From NCBI RefSeq assembly GCF_003334385.1, contig NZ_QOWN01000008.1: 64,000 nt of DNA; one strand, given 5' to 3'. The stretch's first letter is position 1. Each line of letters opens with the position of its first letter. A program made the translations under genes and the position numbers. The notes under the pieces were generated by a model. That model was given only the letters and a program-made list of their open reading frames with translations. It searched no databases and was not told the origin of the DNA. This DNA is from Escherichia coli. GTDB taxonomy: Bacteria; Pseudomonadota; Gammaproteobacteria; Enterobacterales; Enterobacteriaceae. Of this stretch, positions 2,971 to 42,335 are shown piece by piece.

Positions 2971-4089
<1,119 letters not shown>

Positions 4090-4812: not shown

Positions 4813-7485
4813 ATGCGTCAGAAAGAGACAACGGCCACGACCCGCTTTTCACTCCTACCGGGGAGCATTACCCGCTTCTTTTTACTGTTGATCATTGTGT
4901 TACTGGTGACGATGGGTGTAATGGTACAAAGCGCCGTTAACGCCTGGCTGAAAGATAAAAGTTACCAGATTGTCGACATTACCCATGCTATCCAAAAGCG
5001 CGTCGATAACTGGCGTTACGTGACCTGGCAGATCTACGACAACATTGCCGCGACGACCTCCCCCTCCTCCGGCGAAGGTTTACAAGAGACGCGCCTGAAA
5101 CAGGATGTCTACTATCTGGAGAAACCACGCCGCAAAACGGAAGCGTTAATCTTTGGCTCTCACGACAACTCAACGCTTGAGATGACTCAGCGGATGTCCA
5201 CTTATCTGGATACATTGTGGGGCGCAGAAAATGTACCGTGGTCGATGTATTACCTGAATGGTCAGGATAACAGTCTGGTGCTGATCTCAACCCTACCCCT
5301 TAAAGATCTCACCTCCGGATTTAAAGAATCGACCGTCAGCGACATTGTTGATTCACGTCGTGCAGAGATGTTGCAACAGGCCAACGCCCTCGATGAACGC
5401 GAAAGCTTTTCTAACATGCGCCGCCTGGCCTGGCAGAACGGTCATTACTTTACATTGCGTACTACCTTTAACCAGCCAGGACATCTGGCAACGGTCGTGG
5501 CTTTTGATCTGCCGATTAATGATTTGATCCCACCGGGTATGCCGCTGGACAGTTTCCGCCTTGAGCCAGACGCGACGGCAACGGGAAACAATGATAATGA
5601 GAAAGAAGGGACGGATAGCGTCAGTATCCACTTTAACAGTACGAAGATTGAAATCTCCTCGGCACTCAACTCTACCGATATGCGCCTGGTCTGGCAGGTT
5701 CCTTATGGCACCTTATTGCTGGATACGTTGCAAAACATTCTGCTGCCACTGCTGCTGAACATCGGTTTGCTGGCGCTGGCGTTATTTGGCTATACCACAT
5801 TCCGCCATTTCTCCAGCCGCAGTACAGAAAACGTCCCCAGCACGGCGGTCAATAACGAATTGCGCATTTTACGGGCAATCAATGAAGAGATAGTCTCACT
5901 GCTGCCGCTCGGCCTGCTGGTTCACGATCAGGAATCGAACCGCACTGTCATAAGTAACAAAATTGCCGATCATTTGCTGCCGCATTTGAATCTGCAAAAC
6001 ATCACCACCATGGCGGAACAGCATCAGGGGATTATTCAGGCGACGATCAATAACGAGCTGTATGAGATCCGCATGTTCCGCAGCCAGGTCGCGCCGCGCA
6101 CACAAATTTTCATTATTCGCGATCAGGATCGCGAAGTGCTGGTAAACAAGAAACTCAAGCAGGCGCAGCGTCTGTATGAGAAAAACCAGCAGGGGCGGAT
6201 GATCTTTATGAAAAACATTGGCGATGCGCTGAAAGAACCCGCACAGTCCCTGGCGGAGAGCGCGGCTAAACTCAACGCCCCGGAAAGCAAACAACTGGCG
6301 AATCAGGCAGATGTGCTGGTGCGGCTGGTTGATGAAATACAGTTAGCGAACATGCTTGCGGATGATAGCTGGAAAAGTGAGACGGTGCTGTTCTCCGTGC
6401 AGGATTTAATTGATGAAGTTGTGCCTTCAGTGTTGCCTGCCATCAAGCGTAAAGGTCTGCAACTGCTGATTAACAATCATCTGAAAGCACACGATATGCG
6501 CCGCGGCGATCGCGATGCCTTACGACGTATTTTGCTGCTACTGATGCAATATGCCGTGACCTCAACGCAATTGGGAAAAATCACCCTTGAGGTTGATCAG
6601 GATGAGTCCTCCGAAGACCGCCTGACGTTCCGCATTCTGGACACGGGAGAAGGCGTAAGTATTCATGAAATGGATAATTTGCACTTCCCGTTTATCAACC
6701 AGACCCAAAACGATCGCTATGGCAAGGCGGACCCGCTGGCATTCTGGCTGAGCGATCAACTGGCACGTAAACTGGGCGGTCATTTAAACATCAAAACGCG
6801 GGATGGGCTTGGTACACGCTACTCTGTGCATATCAAAATGCTCGCAGCTGACCCGGAAGTTGAAGAGGAAGAAGAGCGTTTACTGGATGATGTCTGCGTA
6901 ATGGTGGATGTTACTTCGGCAGAAATTCGGAATATTGTCACTCGCCAGTTAGAAAATTGGGGTGCAACCTGTATCACACCCGATGAAAGATTAATTAGTC
7001 AAGATTATGATATCTTTTTAACGGATAATCCGTCTAATCTTACTGCCTCTGGCTTGCTTTTAAGCGATGATGAGTCTGGCGTACGGGAAATTGGGCCTGG
7101 TCAATTGTGCGTCAACTTCAATATGAGCAACGCTATGCAGGAAGCGGTCTTACAATTAATTGAAGTGCAACTGGCGCAGGAAGAGGTGACAGAATCGCCT
7201 CTGGGCGGAGATGAAAATGCGCAACTCCATGCCAGCGGCTATTATGCGCTCTTTGTAGACACAGTACCGGATGATGTTAAGAGGCTGTATACTGAAGCAG
7301 CAACCAGTGACTTTGCTGCGTTAGCCCAAACGGCTCATCGTCTTAAAGGCGTATTTGCCATGCTAAATCTGGTACCCGGCAAGCAGTTATGTGAAACGCT
7401 GGAACATCTGATTCGTGAGAAGGATGTTCCAGGAATAGAAAAATACATCAGCGACATTGACAGTTATGTCAAGAGCTTGCTGTAG
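4813..7485 (+). CDS. rcsD: RcsD (YojN) phosphotransfer protein of the Rcs phosphorelay
   Basis: 890-aa ORF, N-terminal transmembrane segment, C-terminal HPt region; immediately upstream of rcsB. Confidence 0.95.
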   Translation: MRQKETTATTRFSLLPGSITRFFLLLIIVLLVTMGVMVQSAVNAWLKDKSYQIVDITHAIQKRVDNWRYVTWQIYDNIAATTSPSSGEGLQETRLKQDVYYLEKPRRKTEALIFGSHDNSTLEMTQRMSTYLDTLWGAENVPWSMYYLNGQDNSLVLISTLPLKDLTSGFKESTVSDIVDSRRAEMLQQANALDERESFSNMRRLAWQNGHYFTLRTTFNQPGHLATVVAFDLPINDLIPPGMPLDSFRLEPDATATGNNDNEKEGTDSVSIHFNSTKIEISSALNSTDMRLVWQVPYGTLLLDTLQNILLPLLLNIGLLALALFGYTTFRHFSSRSTENVPSTAVNNELRILRAINEEIVSLLPLGLLVHDQESNRTVISNKIADHLLPHLNLQNITTMAEQHQGIIQATINNELYEIRMFRSQVAPRTQIFIIRDQDREVLVNKKLKQAQRLYEKNQQGRMIFMKNIGDALKEPAQSLAESAAKLNAPESKQLANQADVLVRLVDEIQLANMLADDSWKSETVLFSVQDLIDEVVPSVLPAIKRKGLQLLINNHLKAHDMRRGDRDALRRILLLLMQYAVTSTQLGKITLEVDQDESSEDRLTFRILDTGEGVSIHEMDNLHFPFINQTQNDRYGKADPLAFWLSDQLARKLGGHLNIKTRDGLGTRYSVHIKMLAADPEVEEEEERLLDDVCVMVDVTSAEIRNIVTRQLENWGATCITPDERLISQDYDIFLTDNPSNLTASGLLLSDDESGVREIGPGQLCVNFNMSNAMQEAVLQLIEVQLAQEEVTESPLGGDENAQLHASGYYALFVDTVPDDVKRLYTEAATSDFAALAQTAHRLKGVFAMLNLVPGKQLCETLEHLIREKDVPGIEKYISDIDSYVKSLL

Positions 7486-40145: not shown

Positions 40146-40796
40146 TTACATGGCGTAGTAATACGCTTTCACCTGCTCCCAGTCCGCTTTGGGGATTGGC
40201 TCCAGATATTTTTCCAGCTGGCGGAAGTCATGATTAATCGCTTTATCGCGACGCAAGCGGCGACGACTTTTCTCCAGGTCAAGAAAACCAGCTTCTGCAT
40301 TACCTTCTGTTTTCACATAGATATGGCGAACATAACAACAGCCATGTTGACGATTAATGCTATGCATTTTCTTAAACGCCAGCGCCACTGCTTTCAACAT
40401 GGCTTGCCGTACTTCGTCAGAATAAGGCGATACTGCATGCTGGGCATACCAGTCAGCAATGCTGATGAACCCCGCCATATCTTCAGTCACCAGCAACGCT
40501 CGCCATTCACCCTCAATTTTCACCGCTTCACCAAAAACGATCTTCGGCACGATGACACCGGCCCGTTCCAGTTCTTTAATTACCGCAACCTCACGGACAA
40601 TCGTTGGTCGGCCGAACGGATAACGTACGGAATGAAACAGATGATGCGTCATGCGCTTTACATACAGCTTTTTGCCGTTGCGCTCGACGCATTGCACCCC
40701 GCTCATACCATTACGGCGATAGTTAGGCTCTTCAACCCAGTCGCCCTCTGTTGCCCACCAGTGATTAAATTCGTCGTACTTTGCTGAAACTGCCAT
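40146..40796 (-). CDS. inaA: InaA, acid-inducible Kdo/WaaP-family kinase-like protein
   Basis: 216-aa ORF MAVSAKYDEFNHWWATEGDWVEEPNYRRNGMSGVQCVERNGKKLYVKRM... Confidence 0.9.
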   Translation of the reverse strand: MAVSAKYDEFNHWWATEGDWVEEPNYRRNGMSGVQCVERNGKKLYVKRMTHHLFHSVRYPFGRPTIVREVAVIKELERAGVIVPKIVFGEAVKIEGEWRALLVTEDMAGFISIADWYAQHAVSPYSDEVRQAMLKAVALAFKKMHSINRQHGCCYVRHIYVKTEGNAEAGFLDLEKSRRRLRRDKAINHDFRQLEKYLEPIPKADWEQVKAYYYAM

Positions 40797-41010
40797 ACCC
40801 TATCGCCTGTCATTTTTATTAACGACAATGACTATAGGTGGTTACCTGAGGAAAATCTTAATGAAACGTGTCGTATTAATGAATTTCTTTTGCCACTACT
40901 AGCTTGACACCGCTTTTACCCTTCATTTGCAGCGCATAGATTCCACCAGCCACTACCACTAATAGTGCGCCCAGCAGATAAAATGTGAATTTAATCAGGC
41001 GGATACAGCG

Positions 41011-41217
41011 ATGAATTTTATTCGACAGGGATTAGGCATCGCCTTACAACCAGAGTTAACGCTGAAAAGCATTGCAGGTGAATTGTGTTCCGTTCCTCTC
41101 GAACCAACTTTCTATCGACAGATTTCGTTGCTGGCTAAAGAAAAGCCGGTAGAAGGCAGTCCACTGTTTTTACTACAAATGTGCATGGAACAATTAGTGG
41201 CGATTGGAAAAATTTGA
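41011..41217 (+). pseudogene. yfaH: C-terminal remnant of a LysR-type transcriptional regulator (yfaH-like)
   Basis: 68-codon ORF resembling only the C-terminal co-inducer-domain end of LysR regulators (GLGIALQPELTLKS...); no HTH N-terminus upstream. Confidence 0.45.
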
Positions 41218-41258
41218 TATGAGACAGGATGGCGCATGAACGCCATCCTGCAGTAACA

Positions 41259-42335
41259 TTACTCTTTATTAAGAAATTTTACTGCCTTATCAGGGAAATC
41301 AGTAAACAGCCCATTTACACCCGCTTTGTTATACAGAGCATCATATAACTGATTCACATCAGGAGTGTATTCAGGCAGTTTATCTGACCGCACGGTATAA
41401 GGATGCACTACCAGTTTATTCTGCTGAGCATCTTGCACCATGCCAGTGAGTTTGATATTACCCGGCTGCGATGTCTCCTCAATCAACATATGGTAATCCG
41501 GACCAATACCATCTGCATATTCCGCCACCTGTTTCATGGCACCCGGCTTAAACATCCAGTCGTAGTTGTAATTAACCCAGCTTCCATCCGGCTGTTTCTG
41601 CTGCGTTTCATTCCAGTCGGTATAGGCAATCAGCTGTACCAGATTGAGCTCCATGCCCATTTTGGGTTCCAGCTCATTCTTAATACGCTTCAGCTCATCA
41701 GCATCAAAACATTGCAAATAAACTTTATCGTCTTTACCGGTGTAACCATATTTCTTCAGCACTTCCAGCGTTTTTGCCGCAATATCCTTCCCTTCCTGAT
41801 GATGGAACCACGGCGCTTTGATTTCTGGATAAATACCGATATTTTTCCCGGTAGAGTGATTTAACCCCTGAACAAATTCAATCTCTTCTTCAAAGGTGTG
41901 CACCCGGAAGTCGGACTTACCCATTGGGAAACGCCCCGGATAAGTCTGCACTTTTTTACCGTTTTCAATATCGAAACCTTCGGTAAATTTCAACGACTTA
42001 ATTTCATCCAGCGTGAAATCTATCGCGTAGTAACGACCGTCTTTGCGCGCCCGATCCGGGAAACGATCGGCAACATCAGTAACACGATCGAGGTAATGGT
42101 CATGCAGAACAACCAGATTGTCGTCTTTGGTCATCACCAAATCCTGTTCCAGATAATCCGCTCCCTGCGCATACGCCATCGCTTTTGCTGGCAGCGTATG
42201 CTCCGGCAAATATCCACTGGCACCGCGATGGGCGATGACTATTTTTTCGTTGCTGTCCGCCGCCATTGCACTGCTTCCCATGACTATAGTGCTCATCATG
42301 ATCGCCATGCTAAGGTTTTTCAGCGTCAATTTCAT
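41259..42335 (-). CDS. glpQ: Periplasmic glycerophosphodiester phosphodiesterase
   Basis: ORF-track 377-aa entry trimmed to MKLTLKNLSMAIMMSTIVMGSSAMA... (358 aa); GDPD motif HRGASGYLPEHT. Confidence 0.95.
   Translation of the reverse strand: MKLTLKNLSMAIMMSTIVMGSSAMAADSNEKIVIAHRGASGYLPEHTLPAKAMAYAQGADYLEQDLVMTKDDNLVVLHDHYLDRVTDVADRFPDRARKDGRYYAIDFTLDEIKSLKFTEGFDIENGKKVQTYPGRFPMGKSDFRVHTFEEEIEFVQGLNHSTGKNIGIYPEIKAPWFHHQEGKDIAAKTLEVLKKYGYTGKDDKVYLQCFDADELKRIKNELEPKMGMELNLVQLIAYTDWNETQQKQPDGSWVNYNYDWMFKPGAMKQVAEYADGIGPDYHMLIEETSQPGNIKLTGMVQDAQQNKLVVHPYTVRSDKLPEYTPDVNQLYDALYNKAGVNGLFTDFPDKAVKFLNKE

Follow-up and report, generated by a model that had tools for sequence, protein, structure and literature searches.

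The 462-bp spacer between inaA and glpQ in the Escherichia coli DNA analyzed here is, with high confidence, a deletion scar, the stump of an MFS/LysR gene pair that was truncated by one deletion of 1.9 kb. The open reading frame (ORF) in this spacer is yfaH (b2238), an already annotated pseudogene, and to this extent the finding is known and ordinary. What is added here to the knowledge of yfaH is a second stump on the minus strand derived from the MFS transporter gene, the exact deletion junction, and the frequencies of the different states of the locus in the population. All positions refer to the window, i.e., the whole stretch of 64,000 nucleotides from contig NZ_QOWN01000008.1.

Organization of the spacer

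The spacer occupies positions 40797-41258, exactly as delimited in the original prediction (between the last base of the inaA start codon at 40796 and the first base of the glpQ stop codon at 41259). The gene order around it is nrdB-yfaE (+), inaA (40146-40796, -), spacer, glpQ (-), glpT (-), and the 6.3 kb surrounding the spacer are 99.95% identical to E. coli K-12 MG1655. All parts of the spacer are accounted for, namely the region upstream of inaA, the MFS stump, the junction, the LysR stump including yfaH, and the hairpin next to glpQ (Table 1). Three further ORFs of 39-44 codons overlap the spacer and are put down to chance. The original prediction had described only a 68-codon ORF resembling the C-terminal end of a LysR regulator, with no sequence for an N-terminal HTH domain upstream, followed by a GC-rich hairpin at 41223-41250. 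The ORF and the lack of an HTH-coding sequence were borne out; the MFS stump and the three chance ORFs had been overlooked, and the hairpin is present but extends from 41225 to 41250.

Table 1. Features of the inaA-glpQ spacer (positions in the window)
Feature	Position	Strand	Remarks
inaA 5' flank, promoter/leader region	40797-40875	-	79 bp, from the inaA start codon to the stop of the former MFS gene
MFS transporter gene, 3' remnant	40876-40980	-	last 34 codons and stop
Deletion junction	40975-40982		8-bp direct repeat CAGATAAA, single here but present twice in intact loci
LysR-family regulator gene, 3' remnant	40975-41217	+	80 codons and stop; equivalent to residues 213-292 of the full-length regulator
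yfaH (b2238), ATG ORF inside the LysR remnant	41011-41217	+	207 bp, 68 codons; annotated as pseudogene in NC_000913.3
Hairpin	41225-41250	-	perfect 10-bp stem and 6-nt loop, 8 nt downstream of the glpQ stop

The 5' flank of inaA is contiguous with that gene and is kept in every allele type (intact-pair, scar and island-free B2-like spacer). We take inaA to be a MarA/SoxS-activated gene. The MarA/SoxS/Rob marbox consensus AYNGCACNNWNNRYYAAAYN yielded no match with up to two mismatches in 40797-40900, and the number of its matches in the whole window was not above chance level. Activation of inaA by MarA has been described (PMC5257004). We infer that the spacer outside the two stumps consists of functional flanking sequence of the neighboring genes, with the inaA upstream region on the left and a putative glpTQ terminator, the hairpin, at the right end.

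Intact locus in other strains and species

In E. coli O157:H7 (locus L001) and in strain CFSAN061771 (locus L003) the interval between inaA and glpQ holds a divergent MFS/LysR gene pair; the original prediction had proposed a synteny comparison, which does reveal an intact regulator gene at the very same place in other E. coli strains as well as in other Escherichia species. The intact MFS gene of the two strains (1,191 bp, minus strand) ends 80 bp upstream of inaA. The intact LysR gene lies on the plus strand, measures 879 or 900 bp (292 or 299 aa) and is separated from the MFS gene by a divergent promoter region of 151 bp. LysR regulators are typically transcribed divergently from their target gene, and the MFS/LysR layout is the classic LysR arrangement. 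The difference in length between the LysR genes is due to a 1-bp deletion just before the stop codon in CFSAN061771 (L003:5230-5268), which yields 299 instead of 292 aa; the extended frame runs into the glpQ hairpin, and its stop lies 19 bp from the glpQ stop.

The relatives were scanned with one genome per species. E. whittamii and Escherichia sp. E1V33 show the order nrdB-yfaE-inaA-MFS-LysR-glpQ-glpT, and Escherichia sp. MOD1-EC7003 shows nrdB-yfaE-inaA-MFS-LysR, where the locus ends inside the LysR gene. The MFS/LysR pair adjoins nrdB-yfaE in two Kluyvera species and one Pseudocitrobacter. Because the intact pair is found at this position in the relatives, the pair is regarded as ancestral and the state in the window as derived.

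A 3.5-kb contig labeled as a metagenome-assembled genome of Collinsella sp. (JAIJJM010000334.1, locus L007) also carries MFS, LysR, hypothetical protein and glpQ genes. Its LysR protein is 99% identical to that of E. coli and the other proteins are 93-100% identical; the contig is almost certainly E. coli contamination of the Collinsella bin.

Deletion junction

The window aligns to the MFS side of the intact loci up to position 40982 and to their LysR side from position 40975 onward, so that both alignments share the 8-bp repeat given in Table 1. In the intact loci CAGATAAA occurs once in each of the two genes, at 3126 and 5005 in L003 and at 6277 and 8156 in L001, with a spacing of 1,879 bp in both. 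The original prediction had suggested an old deletion or insertion scar; the 1,879-bp deletion with its 8-bp repeat junction supports the former and not the latter. The junction is common to all six scar alleles that were aligned, and contiguous matches across it are found in 3,076 of 5,426 complete E. coli genomes, which points to a single event that has spread by descent or recombination.

These observations are best explained by the following course of events. The ancestral Escherichia locus had the order nrdB-yfaE-inaA-(MFS, -)-(LysR, +)-glpQ-glpT, including a divergent pair of regulator and target. In the K-12-like lineage, one deletion of 1,879 bp between the two repeat copies, one per gene, took codons 1-362 of the MFS gene, the shared 151-bp promoter region, and codons 1-212 of the LysR gene including the HTH domain. 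This left a 34-codon MFS tail abutting an 80-codon LysR tail, the latter without its original promoter, start codon and DNA-binding domain. The LysR tail is now decaying neutrally, and the 68-aa YfaH ORF exists only through mutation of an isoleucine codon to ATG.

As judged from the junction, the deletion may have arisen by replication slippage or by RecA-independent illegitimate recombination, both of which are expected to remove DNA lying between short direct repeats. Short-direct-repeat (microhomology) deletions leave one copy of the repeat and remove a length equal to the repeat spacing, as in the present case (one 8-bp copy, 1,879 bp). Being only 8 bp long, the repeat may owe its position at the junction partly to chance. 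That the scar was instead made by an IS1-mediated adjacent deletion is highly improbable: IS1 copies are present at the locus in several strains, one of them tied to a large deletion from inaA to nudI, but the junction contains neither IS sequence nor an IS end and is a seamless join within an 8-bp chromosomal repeat.

MFS transporter remnant

The remnant of the MFS gene translates to YLLGALLVVVAGGIYALQMKGKSGVKLVVAKEIH, followed by the stop codon. This peptide shares 31 of its 34 residues with the C-terminal end (residues 363-396) of the MFS transporter of strain CFSAN061771 (E=5e-18). That protein, 396 aa long and intact, is recognized by MFS models, whereas the remnant retains only the last 34 residues of the full 12-helix MFS fold (~400 aa). 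In K-12-like strains, PGAP also flags this stump as an incomplete pseudogene with missing N-terminus.

LysR remnant and yfaH

Upstream of the yfaH start codon the reading frame stays open and homologous back to position 40975, which extends the LysR-derived stretch to 80 codons. In a Pfam search, this stretch aligned with positions 131-189 of the 209-position LysR_substrate model (PF03466; E=2.2e-6). In BLASTP, it showed 86% identity to an intact E. coli LysR regulator of 299 aa (residues 213-291, E=9e-47), so the LysR similarity noted from the sequence was recovered as a significant match in a database search. Both domains of LysR-type regulators are present in the intact orthologue, i.e., HTH_1 (PF00126) at residues 3-63 and LysR_substrate at residues 88-267 (model positions 2-188), and its gene is divergent from that of the MFS transporter. 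The window, unlike such loci, keeps only the last 80 codons; no HTH-coding sequence was found in any frame of the spacer and no HTH_1 match in the 80-aa remnant, nor is the LysR_substrate domain (~209 positions) complete. As judged from these domain matches, the remnant holds only the end of the effector-binding domain. Having no HTH, promoter, dimerization surface or effector pocket, it cannot work as a regulator.

The original prediction had called the remnant yfaH-like, and the ORF is yfaH itself. MG1655 (NC_000913.3) carries this ORF of 207 bp as well, likewise flanked by inaA (b2237) and glpQ (b2239); there it is annotated as a pseudogene and shows no difference of substance from the window. 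The PGAP label in other strains is 'LysR family transcriptional regulator, incomplete, missing N-terminus'. As in a pseudogene, homology to the 3' part of the intact gene is preserved in frame at the syntenic position, and signs of relaxed selection are found together with disabling lesions, on small substitution counts. The dN/dS ratio over the 80 codons is 0.8-1.7 between scar alleles and intact E. coli genes and 0.05-0.13 among the intact genes; these estimates come from ~14-17 substitutions, small counts that nevertheless give a consistent contrast. Strain XH993 has a 1-bp deletion inside the yfaH ORF, which is annotated as 'frameshifted', and in B771 and Ec-042-T0 the LysR frame is interrupted by stop codons before the yfaH ATG is reached.

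The codon that serves as the yfaH start is ATC (Ile) in every intact orthologue, including those of three other Escherichia species, and is ATG only in scar alleles; this comparison shows the ATG to be a derived ATC-to-ATG change. It might be argued that this change gave rise to a domesticated small protein, the LysR tail having been reborn as a 68-aa peptide that, e.g., binds, poisons or interferes with other LysR-type regulators. An acquired function would explain why the ORF has stayed open in most scar alleles (five of the six distinct ones examined), and it would fit the creation of an ORF by a derived ATG and the presence of the scar in ~57% of complete E. coli genomes. Nevertheless, we consider such a function very unlikely. 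The dN/dS ratio measured against the intact genes is near 1 or higher, and the ORF is frameshifted in one strain. The scan for the sigma-70 promoter consensus in 40700-41350 yielded no site, and inspection by eye revealed no clear Shine-Dalgarno sequence upstream of the ATG. The fragment accounts for under a third of the effector-domain model (~59 of 209 positions) and is thus unlikely to fold alone. The high frequency of the scar is explained by descent from one deletion event.

Two further observations bear on YfaH as a small protein. An NCBIfam 'equivalog' model (NF007272) exists, which the yfaH ORF hits with 164.8 bits; intact LysR proteins also pass it (140.7 bits versus a cut-off of 139), so the model merely captures the LysR tail and the 'family' is just that tail. 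In one study, the gene is listed among the CpxR-responsive genes (PMC9600279), which indicates that the region is probably transcribed. On the other hand, a tetracycline-resistance cassette has been put in place of yfaH to serve as a linked marker in strain construction (PMC2714960). In the literature, yfaH was encountered in gene lists and as a site of marker insertion; no functional study was found. For the interpretation of the spacer as a deletion scar, the points that count against it are that most scar alleles in the small sample have kept the 68-codon ORF open and that the NF007272 model exists; the small number of substitutions behind the dN/dS values and the CpxR-responsive listing are further caveats.

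Hairpin downstream of glpQ

The core of the hairpin is GGATGGCGCATGAACGCCATCC at positions 41227-41248. Its folding energy is -21 kcal/mol on the plus strand and -23.7 kcal/mol on the minus (glpQ-sense) strand, with z-scores of about -5.7 and -5.98, respectively, and none of 200 shuffled sequences was as stable. The comparison covered five other loci (three E. coli alleles, E. whittamii and Escherichia sp. E1V33); each of them has the hairpin beside glpQ, with two compensatory pair changes in the B2 allele. Where a 1.7-kb insert parts the LysR gene from glpQ, the hairpin remains on the glpQ side. It belongs to glpQ rather than to the LysR remnant.

The hairpin is the probable transcription terminator of glpTQ, and it possibly acts in both directions, also stopping transcription from the yfaH side. 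It shares with intrinsic terminators the GC-rich, perfect 10-bp stem right after the glpQ stop, with compensatory changes. Unlike in intrinsic terminators, a U-tract immediately 3' of the stem is lacking, as neither strand shows five or more consecutive U in the 8 nt that follow the stem; the glpQ-sense tail is UCUCAUAUCAAAUUUUU, which is moderately U-rich. The scan for an intrinsic-terminator consensus in 40700-41350 yielded no site.

Two other assignments of the hairpin were rejected. No other copy with up to three mismatches occurs in the 64-kb window, as would be looked for in a REP/BIME element. The only Rfam hit in 40600-41400 was RmaA (24.1 bits versus a gathering score of 57, E=0.098), which is taken as a chance match. 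Elsewhere in the window, at 38477-38700 upstream of nrdB, a listed ORF translates to an Arg/Cys-rich repetitive peptide; this pattern is presumably that of REP/BIME repeats, here in the nrdA-nrdB intergenic region.

Distribution of the locus states in E. coli

The population survey covered 5,426 complete E. coli genomes. The K-12-type scar was found in 3,076 genomes, and the deleted segment is retained in 1,233 (1,217 of them nearly full-length), so that ~23% of E. coli still keep the MFS/LysR pair that was lost from K-12. A third state, found in 1,058 genomes (~20%), e.g., in the bloodstream strain GN02323 and in APEC O2:K1:H4, is a 202-bp 'empty' spacer with no trace of either gene. In GN02323 (B2-like) it corresponds to L004:1598-1799 and replaces approximately positions 40895-41226 of the window. 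It keeps the inaA-proximal 82 bp (to the MFS stop) and the glpQ hairpin; a search with the unique ~100 bp of the B2-type empty spacer found no match in intact loci beyond these 82 bp. Spacers without both genes in ~20% of E. coli imply a history of the locus that is more complex than one deletion.

The empty spacer raises the question of polarity. If the short state of K-12 were ancestral and the MFS-LysR pair of O157:H7 and others had been built or inserted later, the window would hold no true remnants. The B2-like genomes without gene or remnant between inaA and glpQ, and the readiness of the locus to take insertions (the 1.7-kb AT-rich insert, the IS1 copies), are compatible with such an order of events, yet its probability is close to nil. 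Each stump is the 3' end of a full-length gene, still in frame, and the two meet at a repeat internal to the genes, a pattern that insertion cannot create. In three other Escherichia species the intact pair follows inaA immediately, with glpQ behind it in the two whose loci reach that far, and in Kluyvera and Pseudocitrobacter the pair is located next to nrdB-yfaE. The short state as the ancestral one is thus already contradicted. Loss of the pair by deletion in the K-12-like lineage is therefore retained as the reading of the spacer.

A few genomes show IS1 insertions, or larger deletions associated with IS1, at the locus. Copies of IS1 recur at L005:8190-8887 (strain 2020C08-115), in H1 (strain 300081) and at L006:5770-6467. 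In 2020C08-115, IS1 joins the region upstream of inaA directly to nudI, implying that glpQ, glpT, glpABC and the genes beyond them have been lost.

In O157:H7, the LysR stop and the glpQ hairpin are separated by an AT-rich segment of 1.7 kb (L001:8411-10119; GC content ~0.30-0.34). This segment is present in 1,053 of the 5,426 E. coli genomes, with an insertion point corresponding to approximately 41226-41229 of the window, and occurs together with the intact pair (O157:H7) or with the scar (Ec-042-T0, where it is disrupted by IS1). Its absence from E. whittamii and Escherichia sp. E1V33 suggests an insertion. The segment carries a gene for a 356-aa hypothetical protein, for which no match was found in NCBIfam, PADLOC, PHROGs or Pfam.

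Implications

The finding is of little consequence except for annotation, where yfaH is best read as a pseudogene stump and not as a 'hypothetical protein' family. The locus provides a clear textbook illustration of how genes are lost when the DNA between two short direct repeats is deleted. The intact, scar and empty states all still segregate in E. coli, and the locus could therefore serve as a phylogenetic marker.
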